Source of the DNA: Deferrisomatales bacterium
GTDB taxonomy: Bacteria > Desulfobacterota > Deferrisomatia > Deferrisomatales > JACRMM01
Assembly (NCBI GenBank): GCA_033551855.1
Contig: JAWSUI010000007.1
Location: 1-64,000, forward strand
Reading direction: 5' to 3'
Length of the DNA stretch: 64,000 bases
Both the position numbers and the translations under genes were made by a program. Positions within the stretch are counted from its first letter, which is position 1. Each line of letters starts with the position of its first letter. Positions 1 through 12,472 of this stretch are shown here, piece by piece. Under the pieces are notes generated by a model, which saw only the letters and a list, made by a program, of their open reading frames with translations, ran no database searches and had not been told where the DNA came from.

Positions 1-86
1 TCCCCCTGTCTCAAACCTGAACAGGACGTTTCGCGGAGGCAGCGGGAATTGCTGCTGTTGAGAGAGCCCGTGTCGATCTGGATCGA

Positions 87-830
87 GTGCTCAACGCCTT
101 TCGGCATCGAAGATCGTGTCAGTGTGTCGGGACGAATGGCGGGAGAGTCTGTCTCGGTGCTCAACGCCTTTCGGCATCGAAGATCGTGTCAGTTTCGCAG
201 CCGCCGGACTTCGTGCTCCGAAACGAGTGCTCAACGCCTTTCGGCATCGAAGATCGTGTCAGCTGACCGGGGCGGACGACTCCACAGCCGCAGGGGAGTG
301 CTCAACGCCTTTCGGCATCGAAGATCGTGTCAGGGGGGCTGGGTGGCGGCGCCGGAATCTCTGTTTCGTGCTCAACGCCTTTCGGCATCGAAGATCGTGT
401 CAGCGATCCCCCTGGTTGATGGCTACGCGGTTCCTGAGTGCTCAACGCCTTTCGGCATCGAAGATCGTGTCAGGGGGTCTACTGGCACGCTCTCCGTGGT
501 GCTCGACGAGTGCTCAACGCCTTTCGGCATCGAAGATCGTGTCAGCCGGCGATCCCGGCCATGCCCCGTGTCCCCGCTCGGTGCTCAACGCCTTTCGGCA
601 TCGAAGATCGTGTCAGTCACCCGAGGGCCCGGCCAACTGATCCAGATTTTCGTGCTCAACGCCTTTCGGCATCGAAGATCGTGTCAGTTCCCCCGAAGGT
701 CCGCCGCCTGGTCCGCCTCGGCGTGCTCAACGCCTTTCGGCATCGAAGATCGTGTCAGTGCGCGGAGAGGGACGATGACGCCGAACCGAATCATGTGCTC
801 AACGCCTTTCGGCATCGAAGATCGTGTCAG
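87..830 (-). CRISPR. CRISPR array, 11 identical 36-bp repeats and 10 spacers of 34-36 bp
   Basis: Plus-strand repeat GTGCTCAACGCCTTTCGGCATCGAAGATCGTGTCAG starts at 87, 157, 227, 298, 368, 438, 510, 581, 652, 723 and 795. The minus-strand form ends ...GATGCCGAAAGGCGTTGAGCAC (hairpin with GAAA loop), like MYXAN/I-B2 repeats, and lies downstream of cas2. Confidence 0.99.
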
Positions 831-1068
831 CCTGCGGGCCGGAGCCCGCCTCCCGACTGGGGAAAGTCGGGGGAGAATCATGCACCTGGGCTCTGTTGCA
901 CGCAACTCGGGAAGCGCTGCGGCCCGGGCGACGCAGCACCCTGAAAAAACGAGGGTTTTCAGCATCAAGCGTCGCCCCGCGGGGATATGGGCCGGAAAGC
1001 CGCTCGGAGACTGCGTCTTCCATCGCCGCGGGAACCGGTGCGGCGTTGGAGCTAGGGGGGTCCATGCA
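831..1068 (-). promoter_or_regulatory. CRISPR leader
   Basis: Non-coding interval between the cas2 stop and the first repeat. Contains an A-tract and an imperfect palindrome at 926-977. Confidence 0.8.
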
Positions 1069-1362
1069 TCAGAAGACCTCGAAGGTCGGGGGTGGCTTCT
1101 TCCACTCGTCTTCTCCTCGGCTGTCGATGACCCGCTGGGCGCAGCCGGGGCAGAGGCGCACCACCATCAGGTCGTCCTCGTCCGCCATGACCCTTCCCAG
1201 CTCCCATCGCAGCTCCTCCAACTGGGTCCGGGTCATCTGGATCCGAAAGATCGAGTACTGCACGCGGTCGCCCCGGCCCTTGAGGATCTTGTACGCGCGG
1301 CGCCAGCGCTTGTCGTCGCGGATGTCGTAGCACACGAGGTGCCAGTGCCGCTCGTCGCCCAC
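1069..1362 (-). CDS. cas2: CRISPR-associated endonuclease Cas2
   Basis: 97 aa; LVCYDIRDDKRWRR and G.RVQYSIF motifs; adjacent to cas1 and the array. Confidence 0.97.
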   Translation of the reverse strand: MGDERHWHLVCYDIRDDKRWRRAYKILKGRGDRVQYSIFRIQMTRTQLEELRWELGRVMADEDDLMVVRLCPGCAQRVIDSRGEDEWKKPPPTFEVF

Positions 1363-1363
1363 G

Positions 1364-3103
1364 TCAGCGCAGCCTCAACTTCGCAAACAGCGAAGGCTCG
1401 CCGGTCCACTCCTTCTCGAGGAGCCGCGCCTCGAGCTCGATGGTGCGGGCATAGCTCAAGGAGTAGTCGAGCACCGGGTGCTTCCACTTCTCCTGCTTGC
1501 GGGCCTCGTAGAGCTGGATCGCCTTGCGGCGGCCGTCGGGATTGAGCCAAACCTGGCCGGACGTGACCTCGAAGTCCGGCTTGGCCCACTGTCTGCGGTT
1601 CACGGAACCGATCAGGGGCATGTCCCACAGGATGAGCCGGAAGAGCTCCATCAGATCGAGCGCCAGGGGGTAGGCGGCCGAGCGCGGCGTGTGGAGGATT
1701 CCGAGGGCGGGCTCGAGGCCCACGGCCAGGAGGCCGGCGACGCAGTCCCGGTACAGGAGCGCGTACCCGAAGGAGAGGAGTGCGTTGAAAGGGTCTTTGG
1801 GCGGCCGCCGATTCCGGCCGGAGAAGTGCAGAAAGTCGCCCTCCGCCAGGTTGAGGAGCCGCGGCAGCAGGGCGAAGTACTCGCGGCCCGCGGCTCCCTC
1901 GTGCCCACGGACCGCGTCGATGCAGCGCGTCACCTCCACCTCAAGGCCGTCGGCCCCGGGCTCGAGGCTTGCGATCTCGCCGCCCAGGCGAGCGACGCTC
2001 GCCACCTCCTCGCGCAGCCTCTCCACGCCCCTCTGCACCGCCGCGTCCCGCGGCCCTGCGGCTTCCCCCCGGGTGGCCCGCAGCACGTACCGGAGCTGGT
2101 TCTCCACCTTGGCCTGGGCGATCCTCGCGGCGAGTCCCCCGCGAAGCCTCGGGTCGCGAAGCGCGCCGTACTGGCGGTTGCGGCGCTGCACGCCCCCGGC
2201 GCCCGCAGACAGCGCTCCAACGTAGTGGCCGCCGTAAGAGAGCCAGTGCACGCCGATCTCGCGGGCCGCGCAGTAGTGTACGGCCTGGGTGGAGATCTGC
2301 ACGTTCCCGTGGAGGACGAGGGCCGCCACGGTCCGGCCGGGGAGGGGCTTCTTGGTGCCGTCGGGAAGGTACACCACGAGCTGCTCCCCATCCTTTCGGA
2401 TGCCCGCGCCCTGCTCCACCACGTGGACGATGCGCCGGTCCTCGTCGGCAGGAAACAGGCGCTGGGGTTTGTCGCCGCCGTCGGCGGCGAACCGCTCTTC
2501 TTCGGGGAGGCAGACGGGAGCCAGGGAGCAGGTGCGGCAAAGCTTCTCGGACACGGCCACCGGCGGCCGATCGGCGGCGCTGCGAAGCTCCCGGGCCCTC
2601 GCCACGGCCGCCAAGACCTGGGCTTCGGCCGCGGCCCGGTCTACGGGCAGCCGGATCGTCTTTCGGTCGGCGTGGTAGCGGACTACGGCCTCGGGGACGT
2701 CTTCGCCCCGATGCTCGGACAAGAGCAGGGCGTAGGCGAGCACCTGGAGCCGGTCGCTCGGCCAGGCTTCCGTGCCGTTTCGCGACCGGCCCTTCTTGTG
2801 CTCGGTGACCACGAGCCGGCCGTCCTCGCGCCGGGCGGCGTCGAGCTTTCCCCGGATGCCGAGGCGCTCGCTCCCGAGCTCCAGGGTGTACACCTCGGGT
2901 CCCTTGTCGATCTCGTCGTGCACGCGCCTGCCGGCGTACACGTTGGCATCGGCTACCCGGATCTCCTCCACTTCCTCCAAGTAGAAGAGCCGCTCGCAGT
3001 AAGCCAGCGCATGGAGGGCCATGACCCGGACCAGGGGCTCGTCGGTTGTCTTCTCCGCCTGGTGGTGCGAGCGGAAGGCGTCTTCGAAGTCGGGGTCGGC
3101 CAT
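1364..3103 (-). CDS. cas1: Cas4-Cas1 fusion (MYXAN type)
   Basis: N-terminal Cas4 (YCERLFY, EHKKG, CRTCSLAPVC) followed by Cas1 (RGHEG, RNRRPPKDPFNALLSFGY, LALDLMELFR). Start taken at ATG 3103, 5 bp after the vapC stop. Confidence 0.95.
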   Translation of the reverse strand: MADPDFEDAFRSHHQAEKTTDEPLVRVMALHALAYCERLFYLEEVEEIRVADANVYAGRRVHDEIDKGPEVYTLELGSERLGIRGKLDAARREDGRLVVTEHKKGRSRNGTEAWPSDRLQVLAYALLLSEHRGEDVPEAVVRYHADRKTIRLPVDRAAAEAQVLAAVARARELRSAADRPPVAVSEKLCRTCSLAPVCLPEEERFAADGGDKPQRLFPADEDRRIVHVVEQGAGIRKDGEQLVVYLPDGTKKPLPGRTVAALVLHGNVQISTQAVHYCAAREIGVHWLSYGGHYVGALSAGAGGVQRRNRQYGALRDPRLRGGLAARIAQAKVENQLRYVLRATRGEAAGPRDAAVQRGVERLREEVASVARLGGEIASLEPGADGLEVEVTRCIDAVRGHEGAAGREYFALLPRLLNLAEGDFLHFSGRNRRPPKDPFNALLSFGYALLYRDCVAGLLAVGLEPALGILHTPRSAAYPLALDLMELFRLILWDMPLIGSVNRRQWAKPDFEVTSGQVWLNPDGRRKAIQLYEARKQEKWKHPVLDYSLSYARTIELEARLLEKEWTGEPSLFAKLRLR

Positions 3104-3108
3104 CGGCT

Positions 3109-3504
3109 TCAGACAACGTGGTCGATGTGTGGGTACGAGAGGATCTTCCCATCGACGGTCACCAGGGGGCACCCCAAAATGCGGGCCGTGGCGACGATGA
3201 GCTGGTCGGCCGGATCCCGGTGAAACTTCCCGGGTAGACGCGCGGATTCGGCGGCTATGGCCGCGGTGAGGGGAAGGAGGCAGACGCCGGGGTACGCCAG
3301 CGCCAGCGCCAGCCACTCTTCTACTGGACAGGGGAGCTTGATCTTACCAAGTTCCACCCCCTTGGCGATCTCCCACAGAGAAATGGCGCAGACGCCGAGG
3401 CCGCCGCCTGTCTCCTCGGCCGCCATGCGCGCCTGCTGCGAGGGCGAGAGCTTTGCCACATCCTGCACCCACCAGAGCCAGGCGTGGGTGTCCAGTACGA
3501 TCAC
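3109..3504 (-). CDS. vapC: PIN-domain toxin (VapC family)
   Basis: MIVLDTHAWLWW, SLWEI and HRDPADQLIVATA PIN motifs; start overlaps the stop of the upstream small gene. Confidence 0.92.
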   Translation of the reverse strand: MIVLDTHAWLWWVQDVAKLSPSQQARMAAEETGGGLGVCAISLWEIAKGVELGKIKLPCPVEEWLALALAYPGVCLLPLTAAIAAESARLPGKFHRDPADQLIVATARILGCPLVTVDGKILSYPHIDHVV

Positions 3505-3719
3505 TTCAGTGCCTCCCAGTCCTCCAAGGCAACCGGTTCGGTCGGGTCGTCGTAACGGTACGGCTTCCCCCGCAAGGGATACCGTTCCTCGGCCTCGTGC
3601 GCCAAAGGGGGGCGCTCGATCACGATGACTTCGACCGGCTCACCCTCCACGAACGGAACCCGGTCCAGCACGATCCGCCCCCCCTTCGCCACGGTGGTTT
3701 CCACCCGATAGGCCTGCAT
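3501..3719 (-). CDS. Putative antitoxin cognate to the PIN toxin
   Basis: 72 aa; GGAGGTG Shine-Dalgarno; GTGA overlap with vapC; acidic tail DDPTEPVALEDWEA. Confidence 0.75.
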   Translation of the reverse strand: MQAYRVETTVAKGGRIVLDRVPFVEGEPVEVIVIERPPLAHEAEERYPLRGKPYRYDDPTEPVALEDWEALK

Positions 3720-3764
3720 GGAAGTTCACCTCCCTTCGTCAGTTCGCTCCGCCACTGCAAAGCA

Positions 3765-4031
3765 CTACGGCCTCGGCCGCCGCCAGAGCGCTCGATGTCC
3801 CACCCCGTCCACTTTGACCACCTCGTCACCGGATTCCTCCAGAATCTGCTCCACCGTGCCCATGTCCTGGGCGGTGAGCAGAAAAAGCTGCACCGCCTCG
3901 GCGAGAGCCCTTCGCGCTCCGTCCACGGTGGGCCCCGCGCTCATGACGTCCAGCGGAAGCGCGTGGGCCACGAACTGCTCCCATTCTTTCCAGATCTGGA
4001 CGGTGTATTCAATGTCGAAGATTCGGTTCAC
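3765..4031 (-). CDS. HicB-family antitoxin-like protein, no HicA partner; C-terminus possibly degraded
   Basis: VQIWKE...FVAHALPLDVMSAGPTVDGARRALAEAVQLFL fits the HicB N-domain; AAGGAG SD 7 nt before GTG. Confidence 0.72.
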   Translation of the reverse strand: MNRIFDIEYTVQIWKEWEQFVAHALPLDVMSAGPTVDGARRALAEAVQLFLLTAQDMGTVEQILEESGDEVVKVDGVGHRALWRRPRP

Positions 4032-4069
4032 GGGTCATCTCCTTGGGGCGGTATCCACCCCTGCGCCAA

Positions 4070-4393
4070 TCACACGATCCGTTGGCCCGTGCGTACGATC
4101 TTCCGAACCATCGGACCTTGGTCCTCCCAATCCTTGCGCCCGAACGCGCGGGGTTCGATCCGAAGGTCGATCCCGCGGCGGAGCCGGGTGAGGCGGACGC
4201 CTTCGTCGAAGATGTCCACCTCGTCCCGATCGAGGGGCACGACGAGGTCGATGTCGCTGTCCGCGTCCGGTGCTCCGTTGGCGTAGGAGCCGAACAGGTA
4301 GACCTGCCAGATGGCGACGTTGTTCTCCCGCAGGCGCCGCACGTACTGCCGGACTTTCTGAACGGCTAGGTCGCGATCAACTGGAGCAGCCAT
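4070..4393 (-). CDS. Minimal nucleotidyltransferase (MNT) antitoxin
   Basis: YLFGSYANG...DSDIDL (GSx10DxD) motif; overlaps the HEPN gene end. Confidence 0.9.
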   Translation of the reverse strand: MAAPVDRDLAVQKVRQYVRRLRENNVAIWQVYLFGSYANGAPDADSDIDLVVPLDRDEVDIFDEGVRLTRLRRGIDLRIEPRAFGRKDWEDQGPMVRKIVRTGQRIV

Positions 4394-4757
4394 TGGCGGG
4401 CCTCTCGGATGCGATCCAGATGGTGTGCGGTGAACTCGCGTGTGGCCTTCTTTCGAAACTGACCCTTGTAGTCCGGATATCGTGCCTCGATGTTCAACCG
4501 TGTGACAACCTCCAGCAACTTTTCCTGGTCGCCCGTAAGCGCAAGCCCGGCCCGGCTCGCCAGGTGCGGGAGTCGTGGACCCGCGGCACATTCTCATCCA
4601 CGAGCTTGACGTAGACCGCCTTCAGAAGCTTCTCGATGACAAGATGGCCCAGGAACAGAGCCCAGGCGTCGTGTCCGTTCTGGAACAGGCTCTCCGACGC
4701 GCGCAGGTCCTCGTCGGCGCTGGCAAGCCAGTAGTCGATCAGTTGTTCTCTCGTCAT
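4366..4757 (-). pseudogene. HEPN-domain protein with a 1-bp deletion frameshift near 4572
   Basis: Frame 1 gives MTREQLIDYWLASADEDL...HLVIEKLLKA...PRVHD. A shifted frame continues LPHLASRAGL...NIEARYPD...WLLQLIAT to TAG at 4366-4368. The span is 392 nt, one short of a multiple of three. Confidence 0.85.
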
Positions 4758-4803
4758 GCGGTCCTCGTGCGGCCGTCCAACCACAGCATATCGCGGTCGA
4801 GAG

Positions 4804-5460
4804 TCAGGCAGGGTTCTCTACCATGATCCATCGGGCATCGTCTGGGGTGGGAGTCCGCGCGAATCCTTCCTCGAAGTGGAACTGCCTCCAAATGGTGCCC
4901 TTTGACCCCACGTGGTCCACCCATACCGGGAGGGGCAGATCTCCCTCCGGGTTCGGTACGAGCCAGCGGCACGCGACGCCATCGAGGGGCGGATTCCACC
5001 AGACGTCGTTGACCAGGTCGCGGCTCTCGCCGAGGCTCAGGCCGCCGAAGCGCTGCACATTGCCCGGAGACGTCGCCGCCAGGTGGAGACGGTCGGCGAG
5101 TGGACCGGCATCGACCCACACCGCGAGGTCTACCCCTGTGAGCATCTCCTGGAAGTCCGGCCGCCGGTTCGTCCCGACGCCCGGTGGCTGGGGGCGCCCC
5201 GTTTTCTTGTCCTTGAGGTCCTTTACCCGCCAGACCGTGCGGAGCACGGTGGACACCTCGGGTTGCGCGAGGAGCGCGTAGGCGAGCCTGGTCCCGAGGT
5301 AGGCGCGCCGGTCCTCCTCGCCCACCAGAGAGAGAAGGAAGCCATAGACCGTCGAGGGCGGAGGGACCTCCTCGGTCTCCAGGTACTCGCGCGCATACCC
5401 CTTGCGGAAGCTGCAGATCGGGGCCGTGACCCGAAGGGAGACGGCTGCGGACTGGCTCAT
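4804..5460 (-). CDS. cas5: Cas5 (DevS/MYXAN type)
   Basis: APICSFRKGYAREYLET..VPPPSTVYGFLLSLVGE; RFGGLSLGESRDLVN. Confidence 0.93.
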   Translation of the reverse strand: MSQSAAVSLRVTAPICSFRKGYAREYLETEEVPPPSTVYGFLLSLVGEEDRRAYLGTRLAYALLAQPEVSTVLRTVWRVKDLKDKKTGRPQPPGVGTNRRPDFQEMLTGVDLAVWVDAGPLADRLHLAATSPGNVQRFGGLSLGESRDLVNDVWWNPPLDGVACRWLVPNPEGDLPLPVWVDHVGSKGTIWRQFHFEEGFARTPTPDDARWIMVENPA

Positions 5461-5482
5461 GTGAACTCCCCTGGTTCCTCCG

Positions 5483-6343
5483 CTAGGTGCGAAGCGCGGC
5501 CTTGGCCTTCTCGACGGCAGACTTGACGCCCCTCTCACAGACCTTGGCTCCGAGAGCCTTGATTGCCGGCACGTCGGCGATGAGGCCGCCGATGTACAAT
5601 TCCTGCGGGTCGATGTCCTTCGCCTCAACCTTTTCGATGAGCTCCGGGCCGCTCACCTTCCCGTCTTCCTCCGAGAAGCAGTACAGGATACGGGGCGCGG
5701 GGTCCTGGGTGATGCGAAGCACGATCGACTCCGGCGAGAAGTCGAAGAGGAAGCGGCTGTGGTTGCCCGCGACCTCGCCCAGGTTCGCCAGTCCGTCCAC
5801 GACGTCGATCGCACGAGAAGGGACGCGCAGGCGCTCGGGGGTCAGGGCAAAACCGTACTGGTAGCGCGTGGCGTGCATCTCGGTGCCATAGAGGGAGGTG
5901 CGGTCCTTCTCGCCGCTCTTCGCGTTGAAGGAGATGTCGCCCGAGAACGGCGTGGTCGAGATGGCCCGGGCCACTTCGAGAACGCCCCGGCGCTTCGTGG
6001 TCGTGCCCTTCTCACCCTCGGCCTTTCCGCCCTCCGCCTTCATGAAACCGAGTACGTCGTCGTCGATGAACGTCTCCCCCTTCTCCTTGGCCCAGCCGGA
6101 CCAGGTCGGGTCCTTCCAAGTGTGGTCGTCCCTCTCGTCGTCCCACTGCCAGTTCACCGACTGGCCGGCCCTCTGCCAGTAGTACCGAAGTGCCCACCGG
6201 ATCGCCTCCGCCGAGACGGTCGTGTGCACCTGCCCCTTCCAGAGGAGCTTCTGCAGCGTGGTGATGTTCCCCTCGGTCTCGCCCCGGTTGTTGGCGGCAC
6301 AGCCGTAGCCCGTGACGATGGCCCCGAACACGTGAAGGCTCAT
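5483..6343 (-). CDS. cas7: Cas7 (DevR/Cst2 type)
   Basis: AANNRGETEGNITTLQK, TTVSAEAIRWALR, FIDDDVLGFM, VAGNHSRFLFDFSP. Confidence 0.95.
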   Translation of the reverse strand: MSLHVFGAIVTGYGCAANNRGETEGNITTLQKLLWKGQVHTTVSAEAIRWALRYYWQRAGQSVNWQWDDERDDHTWKDPTWSGWAKEKGETFIDDDVLGFMKAEGGKAEGEKGTTTKRRGVLEVARAISTTPFSGDISFNAKSGEKDRTSLYGTEMHATRYQYGFALTPERLRVPSRAIDVVDGLANLGEVAGNHSRFLFDFSPESIVLRITQDPAPRILYCFSEEDGKVSGPELIEKVEAKDIDPQELYIGGLIADVPAIKALGAKVCERGVKSAVEKAKAALRT

Positions 6344-6735
6344 ACCTCTTCCTCCTCATCGGTCTGTTGGTCGGTCGTTTCAATCTCCTCGACGCCCTTG
6401 CCCGCATAGGACGCGAGCCCGAGCAATGCCAGATCCCTTGCTCGCTGCCAGTCAGGCCCCGTGAAAAGCCCCAACACCTTCTCCCAGCCTCCCTGGAGCA
6501 CCTTGTTGATGCCGCTGCGGGCGAAGAGGTCGGCGATCTCGGCCCGGAGCGTCTCCCGGTTCTTCGCGCGCATGAGCGAGGTCCGGATGCGCTCGAACTC
6601 CCGCCCGAACTGCGGGGTCTCCCCCCTCGCCTTGGCGCGGCCGGCCAAAGCGCCGTACCGGTTGCGCAGGGCGTCGTGAACGGCCTCGACAAACAGCTTG
6701 TCTTCTTCGTTGGGCCACGGTGTCTGCTGGACCAT
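6340..6735 (-). CDS. cas11: Predicted Cas11 small subunit from an internal in-frame start in cas8
   Basis: AAGGGG (6745-6750, minus strand) lies 9 nt upstream of in-frame ATG 6735 in RKGLNDM; would give a 131-aa helical C-terminal product. Confidence 0.65.
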   Translation of the reverse strand: MVQQTPWPNEEDKLFVEAVHDALRNRYGALAGRAKARGETPQFGREFERIRTSLMRAKNRETLRAEIADLFARSGINKVLQGGWEKVLGLFTGPDWQRARDLALLGLASYAGKGVEEIETTDQQTDEEEEV

Positions 6736-7875
6736 GTCGTTCAACCCCTTTCGGTCGAAGGAGAGAAGGCCTGCCGTCTTCTTGCTCTGCATCAGTGTCC
6801 AGAACTGCGCGAACCACGGCTTCCCGGCCGCGATGTTGTCGGCGATCAGCCCACGGCTGGGGCTTGTGGCCACCCAGTACCCGCCGTCGCCCTTCACCAC
6901 CACTCGGTTGTCCAAGAGGCGGATCGAGGTTTCGAAGAGCCGCAGCCGTTGGCGGTCCACGCGCCGGAGGTGTGCAACCGCCGTTCGGGTCTTCTGCTGC
7001 TTGGACCAGACCACGGTGCCGAGCGAGAGGACCGTGCAGGAGTCCACCGAGAGTGCGTCGGCCGCTCGCCCGCCGCCGAGAAGGTCGAGGGATGCGAGAC
7101 CAAGCAGGCCCGCGTCGCCGAGACTGCTCGCATAGAGACGCCGGGCGGGCGACTCGAGGTATCGCGTAAAGCCCTCGGCATACTTGCGAAGGTTCGTGAT
7201 GTGAGGAAGCACGAGCGCCGCTGTCCGCCTCTTGTCGAACTTGCCATCGACCGTCCGCCGCGAGACCAGGAAGTACAGCGACGCAGCAGGCGCGAAGAGA
7301 AGAGAGAGAAACCCGTTGTGCTGCGCGACCAACGTCGTGTCGGTGCTGTAGGCGACGTGCCGCACACTTCCGCCGGGGAGTGCCCAGCCAGCCACCTTGA
7401 TCTGCGGCTTGAGGTCCCCCTTGTCCGTCACGAGGTTCGAGAGCTGTTGGTGCTGATACGACTGGACGGGCCGGAATCGGTGGGTGACCTGCTTGTCGTC
7501 GAAGGCCAGGGAAAGGCTCGCGTCTGAACCTGCAAGCGTCCGAGTCTTGCCGTGCTGCAGGAAGGTGCCGAGCACCGCTGAGCTGACGAGGAGCCTGGCG
7601 AGTTGCCCCATCGGGTGACGCCGATGAGCGACAAACTGGATGGCACCCTCCGGGCTGATGCCGAATGCCTCGGCCAGCAGGGGTTCGAACAGGGCCTTGG
7701 GCTTTCCGGTCCATCGCAGGTGGACCCGGGTGGGTTCCAGGGCCCACGACCCGTGCTCGGCATACTTCTTCGGGTCCAGCCGCTCCAGGGTCATGTACAG
7801 CCCGGCCAGCCCCACCCGATGCAGGTGGGTCATGCCCGGGTCAAATAATCCAAGGGTCAAGCTCTTGTCGGCCAT
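6340..7875 (-). CDS. cas8: Cas8 large subunit (MYXAN Cas8a1/Csx13-like)
   Basis: LFDPGMTHLHRVGLAGLYMTL, TFLQH, WSKQQKTR and ARDLALLGLASY; lies between cas3 and cas7. Confidence 0.88.
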   Translation of the reverse strand: MADKSLTLGLFDPGMTHLHRVGLAGLYMTLERLDPKKYAEHGSWALEPTRVHLRWTGKPKALFEPLLAEAFGISPEGAIQFVAHRRHPMGQLARLLVSSAVLGTFLQHGKTRTLAGSDASLSLAFDDKQVTHRFRPVQSYQHQQLSNLVTDKGDLKPQIKVAGWALPGGSVRHVAYSTDTTLVAQHNGFLSLLFAPAASLYFLVSRRTVDGKFDKRRTAALVLPHITNLRKYAEGFTRYLESPARRLYASSLGDAGLLGLASLDLLGGGRAADALSVDSCTVLSLGTVVWSKQQKTRTAVAHLRRVDRQRLRLFETSIRLLDNRVVVKGDGGYWVATSPSRGLIADNIAAGKPWFAQFWTLMQSKKTAGLLSFDRKGLNDMVQQTPWPNEEDKLFVEAVHDALRNRYGALAGRAKARGETPQFGREFERIRTSLMRAKNRETLRAEIADLFARSGINKVLQGGWEKVLGLFTGPDWQRARDLALLGLASYAGKGVEEIETTDQQTDEEEEV

Positions 7876-10087
7876 AGGCAGCTCCCCACAGGGGGTCGTA
7901 GTAGATGGTTCCGGCTGGCGCCACGAGGTAGCGGCCCCGGGTCTCCCAGTTCTGCCAGCTCCGGCCCTTCGGGAAGGGCATGGGGATGGCGAGTTCAGCG
8001 AGGACGCCGTCGGCGTCTTCCTCCCTCACCATCTCCACGGTGTAGCCCGGCTCCATCAAAGGCTCTTTGTCCGTCTGGGAGAGCCAGGGGTCTTCGATCC
8101 AGTGGCAGCGAAAGTCGCTCACTCCGGCTTCGCCTTCTTCCTCCGGAAGAGCGAGGAAGGCGTCGGCCAGCTCTCGCTGGGATCTTGGCTCGCCGTCCGC
8201 AACCTGGACTAGCCAAGCTTCGACCCGGGCACAGAAACGCTCGGCGTCGGCCTTGGTGTTGGCATAGGGACGCGCGTCTTCGGGTCGAACGAGGAGGGCC
8301 AGCTTGGCTTCGGCCGGTGCGTCGTCGCGGCGGTTGAGGCGCCCCAGCCGCTGGATCAGGGACGGCACAGGCGCGAGCTCTGACACCAGCAGGTCGGCCG
8401 AGAGGTCCAGGGACACCTCCGCCACCTGGGTCGTTACAGCGAGGAGGCCGGGGCACTCGGGGCAGAAGCCGTCGACGACGCGCCTCTGGCGCGTGAGCCG
8501 GTCCCGGTACCGGTACCGACTGTGAAACGGCTCCACGGGAAGACACTCGTCGGCGCCCCGGCGGCCCACCCCGACAGCCCGGGCCACCGTGTTGCAGACC
8601 CACAGCACCTTGCCTCCCCCGCGGACCACCCGGGCTGCCTCGACCCAAGCCGCCTCGTCCGTCGCCTCCCTGAGCGTGTAGCGCTTTGCGGCTTCCCTCT
8701 CCGCGGGGCCGTCGACTTCCTCGATGCTGCCCCGCCTGGCGCACGCCGCTCCGAGCGCCCTGCGCCTTTCCGGCGGCAACGTTGCTGTCATCAAGAGGAC
8801 AGGTGCGGTCGGGAAGATCTCCAGGAAACGCAGCAGGTGTTGGAAGAGCTTGGGAGAATAGGCGTGTATCTCATCAAAGACAAAGGCCGCCCGCGCAATG
8901 GCCGGCCACGCGTATAGGCCCCGGCGGACGTTCTGAAGGAGGCCCAGAACGGTGTGCGCGGTGCACACGGCCGCCGGAATGGGCCACGTCTCGATGGCCT
9001 CGATCTGCAACATCCGGAGCTCGCGCTCTGACCTCGTTGGTTCAGGCATGTTCTCCAGGAGACGGTAGTCCACACGCGAGCGGGAGTGGATGAGCACGGC
9101 CTCGAAGTCAGGGTCTTGGAGGTACCCGGCGAAGCCTTCGGACGCAGTTGCCGTAGTTGGGTAGCAGAGGAAGAGGCGGCGCCCCTCCGCGTGCTCGGCC
9201 GCCCAGAGATAGGCTGCCGCCGTCTTGCCGGAGCCGCATCCGGCCGTGAGAAGGGCCGTCGCCGATTCGGTGCGGCGCACGGCCTCTTGGAACGGGCGCG
9301 GAGACTTGCCCCGGAGGCGCTGCCTTACCACGGCTTCCAACCCCTCTCGGGTGAGCGTGGTAGAGAGGCGGTCGCGGAGCCACGACCCGAGAGGCTTGTC
9401 CGATGGGAGTGCCGACCCCGCGGTGTCCGCGCAAAGCAGCGCCGCCTTGAGGCACGCCACGAAGAGGCGCTGGTTCCTGAGTTCCTCGGTGTCGAGCTCT
9501 CGGCGGATCGCGCCGGCCCTCGCGTTCACTCCGTCGAACGAGTCGAGGGGGAACGCGGTGTCCGAGACTGCCGGCGGCCGGGGTAAGCCAAAGCGCCGGG
9601 ACCCGAGGGCCAAGTAGTCTTCGAGGTCTGGGTGCGCGCCCAGAAAACGCACTTCCATTCCCTGACGTCTCTTCGTGTCCGGAAACTTCAGGTGATGACC
9701 GCTCACGGTGGCCAGGACAGCGGGGAGAAACCAATCCGGCCGTCCCGACCAGCCGGCGGTCAGCCAGTCCCACAGAACGTCGCGGGCCACCACGAGCCCC
9801 AGGACCTCGTGCCGAATTCCTTGACGGGGTTGCACTTTGCGGACCGCCCCTTGGAAGTGGTCGTTCGCCTTGCCGAGATCGTGAAGCCAGGCGGCCAGGA
9901 ATAGGGCATCCCGCCAAAGCTCTGCCTGTTCCCCTCCGCAGAGCAGTCGCTCCATGTCCTTGGCGAGCACCTCCCCGAAGACCTCCGCGGCGCTCAGCAC
10001 GCGTGCGGTGTGGCCAAGCAGCGTCGCCTCCTCGGGCGGCGCTCTGGGGTCTGGGGCGGACTTCGCCAGCAGGCGTCGGAACTTCAC
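7841..10087 (-). CDS. cas3: Cas3 HD nuclease-helicase
   Basis: LHDLGKAND (HD), AGCGSGKT, FDEIH, MTATLP, QRLGRLNR; GTG 10087 overlaps the cas6 stop. Confidence 0.96.
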   Translation of the reverse strand: MKFRRLLAKSAPDPRAPPEEATLLGHTARVLSAAEVFGEVLAKDMERLLCGGEQAELWRDALFLAAWLHDLGKANDHFQGAVRKVQPRQGIRHEVLGLVVARDVLWDWLTAGWSGRPDWFLPAVLATVSGHHLKFPDTKRRQGMEVRFLGAHPDLEDYLALGSRRFGLPRPPAVSDTAFPLDSFDGVNARAGAIRRELDTEELRNQRLFVACLKAALLCADTAGSALPSDKPLGSWLRDRLSTTLTREGLEAVVRQRLRGKSPRPFQEAVRRTESATALLTAGCGSGKTAAAYLWAAEHAEGRRLFLCYPTTATASEGFAGYLQDPDFEAVLIHSRSRVDYRLLENMPEPTRSERELRMLQIEAIETWPIPAAVCTAHTVLGLLQNVRRGLYAWPAIARAAFVFDEIHAYSPKLFQHLLRFLEIFPTAPVLLMTATLPPERRRALGAACARRGSIEEVDGPAEREAAKRYTLREATDEAAWVEAARVVRGGGKVLWVCNTVARAVGVGRRGADECLPVEPFHSRYRYRDRLTRQRRVVDGFCPECPGLLAVTTQVAEVSLDLSADLLVSELAPVPSLIQRLGRLNRRDDAPAEAKLALLVRPEDARPYANTKADAERFCARVEAWLVQVADGEPRSQRELADAFLALPEEEGEAGVSDFRCHWIEDPWLSQTDKEPLMEPGYTVEMVREEDADGVLAELAIPMPFPKGRSWQNWETRGRYLVAPAGTIYYDPLWGAAYGRQELDPWII

Positions 10088-10674
10088 GCGTCTCTCGTCT
10101 CGAAGAACCCGCCCCCCATCTTCCTTCGCCCCCCCAGCCCGTGCTCCTGGAGGGCGATCGACTCCTCGGCCGTGAGCTCGCTTGCGAGCACCGAGTAGCC
10201 CACCACCTGCTTGCCGTGGACGCCGAAGGTGCGGCGCTCGCCCACGGTGAGCCTGCCCTTCACGCCCAGGGCGCCCGCCTGGCGGCGGATCTCGTCGGCG
10301 AACCGGGCCGAGTCTTGGCCGTTCCTGGTGGTGACGAGGTGGGCGTAGAGGGTTGCTGCGGGCACCAGGGCCCGGGTTTGGGGCACCCCCAGGCGCAGGC
10401 GGTGGCCGTCGACCTCGAGGGTCTTCCCGGCCAGGGGCAGGTAGGCGCGAATCCTTCCGGCAGGAAGGCGCAGGACGAGCTCGGTGTGGGGGGTGAGATC
10501 GAGGAGTCCGTTGCCCACGTAGCGGCCCCGCACCAGCCCCATGGCGAGGTCGGACGCCTCGTGGTGGGCGGGGAGCAGCCGGCACAGCGCCCCGTAGAGT
10601 CCGTAGCCGTGGTCGATGGGCAGCGTTCGGCCCGCCGCGTGGAACGCCAGGTCCACCTTGGGTTGCGCTGTCAT
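10084..10674 (-). CDS. cas6: Cas6 endoribonuclease (MYXAN type)
   Basis: VDLAF...LPIDHGYGLYGAL; C-terminal glycine loop GLGGRRKMGGGFF. Confidence 0.93.
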   Translation of the reverse strand: MTAQPKVDLAFHAAGRTLPIDHGYGLYGALCRLLPAHHEASDLAMGLVRGRYVGNGLLDLTPHTELVLRLPAGRIRAYLPLAGKTLEVDGHRLRLGVPQTRALVPAATLYAHLVTTRNGQDSARFADEIRRQAGALGVKGRLTVGERRTFGVHGKQVVGYSVLASELTAEESIALQEHGLGGRRKMGGGFFETRDA

Positions 10675-10743
10675 GGCAGCCGGTCTCCTCTGCGCCTCTT
10701 CCTGCCGGCACCGCCCCCCCTTCTCCTTCTCCGGGGCCTTGGT

Positions 10744-10795
10744 CGTCACTCGACGGGCATCATAGCAACAACGAGTGACAGATCGCGTCACTCGA
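10744..10795 (-). promoter_or_regulatory. Putative cas operon promoter (extended -10 TGCTATGAT) flanked by GTCACTCG operator half-sites
   Basis: TATGAT at 10759-10764 on the minus strand; GTCACTCG at 10745 and 10787; inverted copy CGAGTGAC at 10772. Confidence 0.55.
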
Positions 10796-11174
10796 GATTG
10801 TTCGGGTTGGGGCCGTCCCGGGGGGTAGCACCGCCCCGGCGGATAGCCAGTCCGACGCTCATCATAGCCGGGTAACTCCCCGGGGCACATCACCCGAAGG
10901 AGGCAAACTGCTTTGCCTCGGACGCGGGAGGCACCCTACGGCGTCACGTGGGTGCATTGATCGGGCAAGACGCTCGCAGGCTTCATATAGTCCTGCCGAA
11001 AATGCGTGGGGGGACTGCTTCGACGGGCGGAGCGCGGCCGTGGGTTCTCCGCGCGCCAGACGGGTACAACCGGCGAAGGCGGTCTGGCTCTCGGAAGTGC
11101 GTACGGCGCAGCAGCCGGCACCCCCGAGCGCCTTCGGCCTTTTCCTCTCCAGCCCGCCCTGCCCGCGAGAGAGG

Positions 11175-11780
11175 TCAGCCCGAAGCCAGCCTCCGCCCCG
11201 CGGCACGGGCGGGGCGCAGCACCCGTTCGGGCACCGCGGGGTGCTCCTCGTCCCCGAGGAGGCCGGCGAAGACCGAGGCCACCGGGCGGGCCCCCAGGGT
11301 CTTCGCCATGGCCCGCAAGGCCCGGGGCGAACCGGTGGCCAGGGGGATGAGGAAGCCCGGCATGGCCGCGGTCGTGACGAGCACCGCCCGCGTGCCCCGG
11401 TCCTTCACCCGCATGACCGGACCCCCGCCGCTCTTCCAGGGCCAGTAGGCGAAGCACACGAGCCGTTCCAGGAACCGCCGGGTGAGGGCGTTGACGTTGT
11501 AGAAGTTCACGGGCGCCCCGAGAACGAGCCCGTCGGCCTGCCGGCAGAGGTCCAGGAGCTCCCCCAGGTCGTCGTCGTGGACGCACCGGCCCGGCTCGGG
11601 GCCGGGCTCCTGGGCGCACCGGCGGCAGTTCGTGCAGAACTCGATACGCGTGTCGAGGAGGTACTCCTTGGCTGCCTGCGCTCCGGCGTCCTCTGCCCCG
11701 CGCAGCACCTCCCCCACGAGGGCATCGACCGCGCCCCCCTTGCGGTAGCTCCCCACGATTCCGAGGACCTTCCTGGACAC
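11175..11780 (-). CDS. Flavodoxin-family / iron-sulfur flavoprotein
   Basis: KVLGIVGSYRKGG, CTNCRRC...C...DD, DGLVLGAPVNF; AGGAAGGAG SD. Confidence 0.85.
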   Translation of the reverse strand: MSRKVLGIVGSYRKGGAVDALVGEVLRGAEDAGAQAAKEYLLDTRIEFCTNCRRCAQEPGPEPGRCVHDDDLGELLDLCRQADGLVLGAPVNFYNVNALTRRFLERLVCFAYWPWKSGGGPVMRVKDRGTRAVLVTTAAMPGFLIPLATGSPRALRAMAKTLGARPVASVFAGLLGDEEHPAVPERVLRPARAAGRRLASG

Positions 11781-11908
11781 GGTCGCACTCCTTCCTGGTC
11801 GGCCACGGCCCGGGCGTGACCCGACGTCCCTCCGCAGGCGTTCCTTCCCTCCTGCCCCTCTCGGCGGAGCGGGGCAGTGCCCGGGGAACCGTCCCCGTCG
11901 GTCTCTCG

Positions 11909-12472
11909 TCAGGAGACTCCCCCCGCCACACTCCCCACGCTCCGGCGCACCTGCTCCACCAGTTCCTCGAGCAGCGCCCCCGCCCGGGGGCGGGACAGCA
12001 CGTGCAGCTCGCAGTCGGGGCGGAGCTTCACCTCCTCTATGAGTCCCGAGCCCTTCTCGGCCACCGTGGCGACGACCGCGGCGGGGCCGTCGAGCCAGTG
12101 GTGGACGAGGCCGCGGAACGTGGGGCTCGCGCACTCCATCTTGCCGATTTCGTCCACGAGGAGCACCGGGCGGCCGCGGGTGTCGAGATTCCGGAGGAAG
12201 GCGTCGAAGGCGCGCACATCGACCCCGTAGCGCCCGACCCGGCGCGGGAGGGGGAGATCCACGTGGGCGAGCACCGCCTCGGTTCCGTCGAGGCCCACCA
12301 GGCGAAACCCGGTGCGCCGCCCCTCCCGGCGGATCTCCGCGGTGTAGAAGCCGCCGGGGCGCAGGTCCCGCAGGCGCTCGGCCAGGCGCTCCATCAGGGT
12401 GGTCTTGCCCTCCCCGGAGGGCGCAGTAACGAGGATGTTGGCTCCGGGCTCCGAGACGGCGCTTGCGCTCAT
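11909..12472 (-). CDS. THEP1-like nucleoside triphosphatase
   Basis: SGEGKTT Walker A, GGFYTAEIR, VGRYGV, LVDEIGKME. Confidence 0.88.
   Translation of the reverse strand: MSASAVSEPGANILVTAPSGEGKTTLMERLAERLRDLRPGGFYTAEIRREGRRTGFRLVGLDGTEAVLAHVDLPLPRRVGRYGVDVRAFDAFLRNLDTRGRPVLLVDEIGKMECASPTFRGLVHHWLDGPAAVVATVAEKGSGLIEEVKLRPDCELHVLSRPRAGALLEELVEQVRRSVGSVAGGVS

Follow-up and report, generated by a model that had tools for sequence, protein, structure and literature searches.

At the beginning of a 64,000-nucleotide stretch of the genome of a Deferrisomatales bacterium (assembly GCA_033551855.1, contig JAWSUI010000007.1, positions 1 to 64,000; hereafter the window), a type I-MYXAN CRISPR-Cas locus on the minus strand carries a block of five toxin-antitoxin (TA) genes between cas5 and cas4/cas1, at the seam between its effector and adaptation modules. 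Large inserts recur at this junction in related loci, where they consist of TA genes of differing families, and none was found at five other junctions. On balance, we consider it probable that the junction is an insertion-tolerant module seam serially colonised by selfish TA pairs, and that any addiction to the neighbouring DNA conferred by a live pair is a by-product. An earlier note, made from the sequence alone, had instead proposed a safeguard wired into the CRISPR transcript, as a protein analogue of CreTA.

The locus reads cas6, cas3, cas8a1/Cmx1, cas7, cas5, a 1,700-bp insert, cas4/cas1, cas2 and the CRISPR array. Upstream, the insert is anchored by cas5 (Cmx5/DevS; 4804..5460; TIGR02586, 135 bits, over the cut-off), the last gene of a Cas8a1/Cmx1-type effector module, and downstream by the cas4/cas1 fusion (1364..3103; TIGR03983, 434 bits), the first gene of the adaptation module. 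Between them lie genes for a HEPN-T protein (4366..4757), a minimal nucleotidyltransferase (MNT; 4070..4393), a truncated HicB-like antitoxin (3765..4031), a 72-aa putative VapB-type antitoxin (3501..3719) and a VapC/PIN toxin (3109..3504), all on the minus strand. The shared orientation with the cas genes and the close spacing reported in the earlier note are borne out by the open reading frames and by Pfam: 46 bp separate the cas5 stop (4804) from the HEPN start (4757), and 5 bp the vapC stop (3109) from the cas4/cas1 ATG (3103). The G+C content of the block (0.61-0.67) is near that of the cas genes. Since HEPN is frameshifted, HicB is truncated and lacks hicA, and the 72-aa/VapC pair is complete, we read the block as one intact pair (vapBC) and two remnants, in line with the note's statement that only VapBC looks complete.

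VapC (131 aa; PF01850, E 5.9e-15) possesses all five acidic residues, D5, E45, D97, D100 and D118, that are invariant across 81 aligned sequences. As in other VapBC modules, the small gene upstream overlaps the toxin gene (by 4 nt) and travels with it, the pair being present in L024, in L122-L124 (Lnnn denotes collected loci) and on plasmids. The antitoxin label of the 72-aa protein comes from this pairing and from 113 homologues; it precedes VapC in unrelated contexts, and on the cyanobacterial plasmid NZ_CP063798 the vapBC family follows parA-parG without cas genes. No second copy of the 72-aa gene was found in the genome. No Pfam family is common to its 79 aligned members, the protein has no PDB sequence match and no fold match at Z≥2, and its monomer model reaches a predicted template modelling score (pTM) of 0.35. 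An AbrB/AF2212-like fold is at most a guess, suggested by one low-scoring atlas row. A complex with VapC is weakly predicted (0.52, against 0.00 for the best control), with runs agreeing in at least 96% of contacts and a partner predicted local distance difference test (pLDDT) of at least 70; of 157 solved and 215 mismatched pairs, 116 and 2, respectively, attained the mark applied to complex scores, 18 of these solved pairs and both mismatches with values of 0.60 or less. Compared with the L024 orthologues, vapBC has a synonymous divergence (dS) of 1.2-1.8 (1.15 for cas4/cas1) and ratios of nonsynonymous to synonymous divergence (dN/dS) of 0.23 and 0.21 (0.21 for VapC), with 0.14-0.18 for the cas genes. 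These values point to purifying selection on a pair as diverged from its L024 counterpart as cas4/cas1 is. As a side observation, the 72-aa family is widespread, unnamed and without a Pfam model, has as many as 1,965 members in a single atlas cluster and precedes one VapC subfamily.

The HEPN gene is frameshifted near 4571-4575. Both halves match PF05168 (E 1.6e-9 and 8e-3) and align to PF05168 proteins of 125-132 aa, the first half at 56-70% identity. The frameshift is also present in X1, a separate contig set that is not independent because it is probably the source sample of the genome, and in X2, from another study, a contig has one extra base there and an intact frame. Thus the adjacent HEPN and MNT genes of a HEPN-MNT module are in place with a broken HEPN frame. 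The protein is of HEPN-T type, with R-Y-x-D and an upstream His, and lacks the Rx4-6H RNase motif of HepT/MntA type VII (DUF86-type) proteins; in the literature, the HEPN-T group is without Rx4-6H and may use another histidine (PMC3710099, with Table 1). The earlier note had called these RNase-type families, a label that, given the missing motif, is at most putative for this HEPN-T protein. MNT (107 aa; PF01909, E 2.6e-9) overlaps the end of HEPN and has an intact GS-x10-DxD motif; its match to the MntA model NF047752 is below the cut-off, and PADLOC reports weak matches to its PDC-S09, M05A and M63A models and no match for any other block gene. Neither the HicB-like nor the 72-aa protein matches a Pfam or NCBIfam model. 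The HicB-like label comes from ESM-Atlas neighbours and from relatives, 58-65% identical, located before hicA; residues 1-71 match a 93-aa family that is mostly followed by hicA, the tail is foreign, and the window holds neither a full-length hicB nor an adjacent hicA. The block resembles plasmid-type VapBC and HEPN-T/MNT modules (PF01850; PF05168 with PF01909; PMC3710099) in the order, size and overlap of its genes and in its catalytic residues. It differs from them in having a broken HEPN-T gene and a 72-aa partner that falls outside all Pfam and NCBIfam families.

To place the block among its relatives, MYXAN loci were gathered by Cas5 similarity from 2 genomes, the best 80 of 319 metagenome hits and further genome searches, so that the sample leans towards relatives of the window. 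Among 94 loci examined, 88 have a whole cas5 and form 79 clusters, and the cas5-cas4 gap is measurable in 53. This gap exceeds 300 bp in 8 of the 53 dereplicated loci, as against none of 222 measurements at five other junctions. All eight inserts are TA genes, of seven families in total by Pfam and NCBIfam labels, and thus the block is not peculiar to one strain, which the earlier note had named as an outcome that would speak against its idea. Besides the window, the slot holds orthologous vapBC (65% and 56%) in L024-26, TIGR02574-ParE in G010, higBA on the opposite strand in L031, DUF4258 with a YgiT/MqsA-like gene and an orphan TumA-like gene in L041, a broken DUF4258 with an MqsA-like gene in L027, TumA-like and TumE genes in L029, and a TumA-like gene with a broken TumE in L042. 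On contigs too short for the count, L117 has TumA-like and TumE genes ahead of cas4 and no cas5, and L028, L039 and L040 have TA-type genes behind cas5 and end before any cas4. In an annotated cyanobacterial locus, cas1 follows cas5. The Cas5 of the window was not found in 60 related genomes, viral contigs held no Cas5 relatives, and no further locus was found in the order of G051.

A quick tree built from 43 Cas4/1 proteins places all eight TA-bearing rows in one 18-row clade (SH-aLRT 100) and none among the 25 rows outside. The label "occupied" needs four changes on this tree, with which a single origin of the occupied state is still compatible. By gap count, inserts are present in 8 of 20 clade loci (four short loci being placed by identity) and in 0 of 33 outside; since the loci are kin, these counts are not a statistical test. 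Within the slot, toxins are lost before antitoxins: HEPN and hicA in the window, DUF4258 in L027, and TumE in L041 and L042. In L042 (1570-1800), the broken tumE has been joined to cas4 by a deletion in which the start of cas4 was lost, so that the adaptation module can be harmed as the slot decays. Other observations from the collected loci concern neighbouring positions. L053 was left out of the junction count, its cas5 being cut off at the edge of the locus; between its cas6 and cas3 lies a stretch of 554 bp (598-1153) with degenerate CRISPR-repeat-like sequence and no TA gene (by eye), a candidate solitary repeat or CRISPR RNA (crRNA)-like regulator. In L009, L054, L056, L060, L071, L072 and L075, the array comes straight after cas5 and there is no adaptation module; in L009, a RelE-like fragment and phd-vapC lie directly behind the array.

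Serial replacement of TA genes at the junction, which the earlier note had suggested, can be seen directly. L027, L041 and L042 have flanking cas genes that are about 90% identical and different slot contents. One X2 contig spans the vapC-cas4 junction, with 21 differences over 268 nt, and two run upstream through vapBC, one of them reaching MNT, which there joins the 72-aa gene without the hicB stretch, and the other having a loose end that reads as the C-terminus of a Cmx8-type Cas5 (by eye); the X2 contigs are short, and contiguity past each contig end is unproven. Because these contigs branch upstream of vapBC, the likely order of arrival is vapBC first, HEPN-MNT next and hicB(A) last. The effector module has changed as well. 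Between G010 and the window, cas6, cas4, cas1 and cas2 are 72-83% identical, and the effector, Cmx8-type in G010, is at about 30%. Moreover, 3' scars of a Cmx8-type cas5 lie behind the present cas5 in L024-26, L030, L031 and L033 (E<1e-9, 83 loci tested). Judging from these sequences, effector modules have been exchanged in situ around cas6 and cas1/2/4, with the TA genes located at the breakpoint. This resembles the published in-situ exchange, where replacement of cas3-cas8-cas7-cas5 leaves the array, cas6 and the adaptation genes in place; the passage seen of that study has no TA or other cargo at the breakpoint (PMC6452270). Two further candidates were dropped. A 13-nt resemblance of the window's 46-bp cas5 spacer to the end of a Cmx8-type cas5, noticed by eye, received no score from the profile, and we do not count it among the scars. 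We also set aside the view that a swap has to leave the TA pair untouched, scars in two (plus one weak) of seven TA-bearing and none of seven TA-free Cmx1-type clade loci being too few.

We suggest that the seam ahead of cas4/cas1 separates a swappable effector module from a fixed adaptation module and array. Because such a seam would tolerate insertions and recombine, it could be colonised repeatedly, in TA-rich hosts, by type II and type VII pairs from the mobile pool, with recombination as the presumed route. In the window, vapBC would be the oldest resident and was kept intact, and HEPN-MNT and hicB(-hicA) would have come later on its upstream side and lost their toxins. A live VapBC would most likely behave as a normal addiction module: if the stretch were lost or silenced, the single-copy antitoxin would decay and the VapC RNase be set free, which would incidentally stabilise the neighbouring cas4/cas1, cas2 and array.

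Several observations weigh against colonisation by selfish pairs. Six of the eight insert loci retain at least one intact pair, vapBC has been kept beside cas4/cas1 for long under purifying selection, the coupling to cas genes is tight (the 5-nt gap in the window; an ATGA overlap of tumE and cas4 in L029), and each of the three cas1 genes of this genome has a TA-like pair directly upstream; all four also fit selection at the level of the host. Furthermore, locus flanks appear TA-free (by eye), and signs of an insertion mechanism were not found. No transposase open reading frame, insertion sequence (IS), integrase or terminal repeat was seen at the block, no flanking element or repeat is shared among the slots, and attC-like patterns are absent from seven of the eight slots, L029 having one palindromic hit. 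Signs of a mobile-element insertion at the edges of the block, which the earlier note had named as speaking against its idea, are not seen in these searches. The note had seen neither a transposase nor an obvious terminator; one weak terminator-like hairpin lies at 3903-3891, in a scan that found 5 in all over both strands against 1.6±1.4 in shuffled sequence.

The three cas1 genes deserve a closer look. They belong to the MYXAN, I-E and I-C types of the genome under study (G000; contigs are written Cnn). The complete type I-E locus on C39 (L147) has a TIGR02574-ParE pair between cas6e and cas1e (4269-4804), where G001, of the same genus, has DUF433-DUF5615. On C20 (58500-59586; L008 6520-7587), a reversed DUF4160-DUF2442 pair, which we take to be a TA pair, and a cas5 fragment precede the I-C cas1, with no cas4 seen; G001 carries a DUF4160-DUF2442 pair between its I-C cas4 and cas1. 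Among 14 I-E loci of the phylum, six have cargo ahead of cas1e, TA-like in four, and the remaining junctions are tight (by eye). This cargo comprises ParDE, DUF433-DUF5615 (with a cas1 97% identical to that of G000), YhcG behind a cas6 scar, RhuM with a reversed hicAB, DUF559 with HTH-Fic, and BRO-N; the I-E genome with a cas6 scar is G004. Small cargo (23S-IVP-like, BRO-N, RhuM) lies before cas4 or cas1 in 14 of 29 I-C loci and is TA-like in two, both of this genus, in a tally made by eye with Pfam checks on 8 open reading frames and without control junctions. In these other types it was also observed that a gene for a 190-aa 23S-rRNA-IVP-like protein (four-helix bundle) recurs immediately ahead of cas4 or cas1 in the I-C loci L176, L177, L181, L183, L188, L189, L192 and L194, and that BRO-N and RhuM genes are met repeatedly in front of cas1 in I-C and I-E alike.

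The genome offers a large pool of TA genes: 85 TA-associated hits in 7 families (40 PIN, 19 NTP_transf_2, 10 ParE, 8 HicA, 3 PemK, 3 DUF2442 and 2 DUF433), of which 82, after removal of 3 in long proteins, form 51 clusters. Three of these 51 clusters stand at the three cas1 genes, far above a uniform expectation, a comparison that overstates the excess because TA and CRISPR genes both concentrate in variable regions. Separately, C24, C77, C99, C101, C48 and C42 carry dense TA stacks, with as many as 7 family hits in one cluster and no cas genes, and the 40 PIN genes belong to a genome of 4.2 Mb.

The pairing at 3/3 cas1 genes, the long-lived vapBC-cas4 linkage under purifying selection and the single-copy antitoxin would suit a safeguard selected by the host, in which an intact TA pair is kept in the cas transcript, so that a cell whose locus is lost, replaced or transcriptionally shut off, for example upon infection, would run out of antitoxin and be arrested. 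This is the earlier note's idea minus its specific link to Cascade, and since any pair with a labile antitoxin would suffice, the families could be interchangeable. Such a role was already proposed for the vapBC pairs of Sulfolobales (PMC3119797, PMC4390879). It is also favoured by L024 and L031, in which the effector swap left the TA pair behind the scar of the old cas5. However, 12 of the 20 clade loci and 33 of 33 outside have no insert, only antitoxins are left in L027 and L042, reversed pairs cannot be on the cas transcript, and passengers that are not toxic (BRO-N, RhuM, YhcG, 23S-IVP-like) occupy this place in loci of types I-E and I-C. Thus we regard a selected safeguard as a serious though unlikely explanation. 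The stronger claim of a CreTA-like wiring fares worse: pairs are reversed in relatives (higBA in L031, hicAB in L152 and DUF4160-DUF2442 on C20), the families are promiscuous and often decayed, I-E and I-C loci hold passengers other than TA genes, and the vapBC family occurs elsewhere without cas genes.

Promoters bear on a further alternative, in which cas4/cas1 and cas2 would be driven from the promoter and operator of a TA pair, or by coupling of their translation to that of the toxin, so that degradation of the antitoxin under stress would raise spacer acquisition as the toxin slows growth and buys time. A strict scan of the window for sigma70 promoters found none. A relaxed scan found a -10-like hexamer (4786..4791, minus strand; 4/6 consensus, no recognisable -35) 34 nt before the HEPN start, possibly the block's own promoter, and a similar stretch precedes the HEPN of the X2 relative (by eye). 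Boxes of this kind precede the first TA gene in the window, L024, L029, L039, L040 and L109. In addition, the cas4/cas1 start, 5 nt past the vapC stop, has no evident Shine-Dalgarno sequence, and in L031 a palindrome lies between the divergent higB and cas4. Against such regulatory capture, similar boxes also precede cas4 in five of nine TA-free loci, neither PDB sequences nor fold comparison gave the 72-aa protein a match that would point to a DNA-binding fold, and the divergence of reversed genes is imposed by geometry. We therefore consider it improbable, more so than a selected safeguard, in favour of which it also counts that no -10-like box was found within 150 nt before the MNT, hicB, 72-aa or cas4 starts.

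Direct coupling to CRISPR machinery, of the CreTA, CRISIS or CCTA kind, would have Cascade and a crRNA-like RNA repress a toxin promoter, or a Cas protein or crRNA bind a toxin or antitoxin. Like CreTA, CreR and CRISIS, the block places presumably toxic genes inside a type I cas operon, where addiction or abortive infection would be possible (bioRxiv 2024.01.05.574328, bioRxiv 2024.12.27.630466), and like CCTA, in which HicAB works with Cas13a, it has a HicB-type gene beside cas genes, here an orphan, and links type II TA genes to CRISPR (PMC13448076). Functional coupling of TA or defence genes to CRISPR has been shown for crlRNA systems, where a crlRNA represses a toxin or defence gene within a cas operon, and for Cas13a-HicAB (bioRxiv 2024.12.27.630466, PMC13448076). 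However, CreTA, CreR and CRISIS, as described there, need a solitary repeat and a spacer-like guide to the toxin promoter. An ungapped scan of 836-12000, which a very degenerate unit could escape, found no crRNA-like repeat unit, the best candidate matching 20-21 of 36 positions within coding sequence, and none of 12 spacers matches the block with a full seed or an ATG protospacer-adjacent motif (PAM). Because no such unit and no matching spacer were found, the block is not a member of CreTA or CRISIS; its antitoxins are proteins, and the tie to Cascade envisaged in the earlier note is not upheld. CCTA, in the text seen, is of type VI, with an intact HicB carrying a ribbon-helix-helix domain and with hicA, whereas here the system is type I, HicB is truncated and hicA is missing. 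Moreover, each of seven unrelated families would need its own Cas interface. Direct coupling is thus very improbable in our judgement.

TA pairs inside cas cassettes have been published before. Sulfolobales cas and cmr cassettes hold interspersed vapBC pairs, which are likewise type II, at times several to a cassette, with a proposed role in maintenance, that is, in keeping the cassette (PMC3119797, PMC4390879). These are archaeal, of VapBC only and, in the text seen, without a fixed position, in contrast to one junction, seven families, a bacterial I-MYXAN clade and effector-swap scars here. Related Pectobacterium strains have differing TA families (HicAB, PemK, RelE/ParE, HigB) in their I-E loci, at a variable position, between cas3 and cse1 or past cas2 rather than at the effector/adaptation seam, and the account of them is descriptive (PMC6963963). 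The available part of PMC12737573 has nothing on type II pairs in operons. In a literature search that lay outside most subscription papers and supplements, no report of a TA slot at the MYXAN cas5-cas4/cas1 junction, or of a fixed multi-family slot at the effector/adaptation seam, was found.

An assembly artefact or a chimera of the metagenome bin might be considered, as G000 is in 132 contigs with 4.16% contamination and 24 of its 51 TA clusters are near contig ends. It is hardly credible for this block: an X1 contig spans 2900-4877 with 3 differences and overlaps the next contig into cas5, the X2 contig from another study bridges vapC and cas4, and orthologous vapBC occupies the same junction in L024-L026. 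A 57-nt X1 contig links part of cas5 (window 4848-4877) to the end of a multi-copy element present at five contig ends of G000, which may reflect an IS inserted in a subpopulation, but the depths do not add up.

The rest of the operon comprises cas7, cas8a1/Cmx1, cas3 and cas6 (5483..10662, minus strand), with tight junctions (-35 to +22 bp), and cas2 (1069..1362, minus strand; TIGR01573). The type I-MYXAN assignment comes from Cmx6, Cas8a1/Cmx1 or Cmx8, DevR, DevS and Cas1-MYXAN models over their cut-offs (TIGR02807, TIGR03485/6, TIGR02585, TIGR02586, TIGR03983). The array has 11 repeats of 36 nt in the window (87..830) and 3 more at the end of C10. It is divided between C10 (L007) and C7 (window 1-86), with about 50 non-array bases at both ends, and these ends carry an inverted repeat of 12 bp, a pattern suggestive of IS insertion within one of the repeats (by eye).

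It has long been asked if the TA genes that lie close to CRISPR loci are partners or passengers. The fixed slot, with natural pairs of occupied and empty loci and with differing TA families in loci that are 90-97% alike, makes this question testable with matched controls. We speculate, as a doubtful but consequential extension, that the seam before cas4/cas1 might be a general TA-collecting site in type I loci, where the pairs would act as a ratchet that kills recombinants losing the adaptation genes and array and allows effector swaps upstream. Even if this fails, the slot still marks a position for small uncharacterised defence-type genes, such as that of the 72-aa antitoxin family. If true, the ratchet would partly account for the constancy of adaptation modules when effectors are exchanged in situ, and would constitute a family-agnostic, protein-only safeguard of immune memory that ties TA addiction to the modular evolution of CRISPR-Cas systems.

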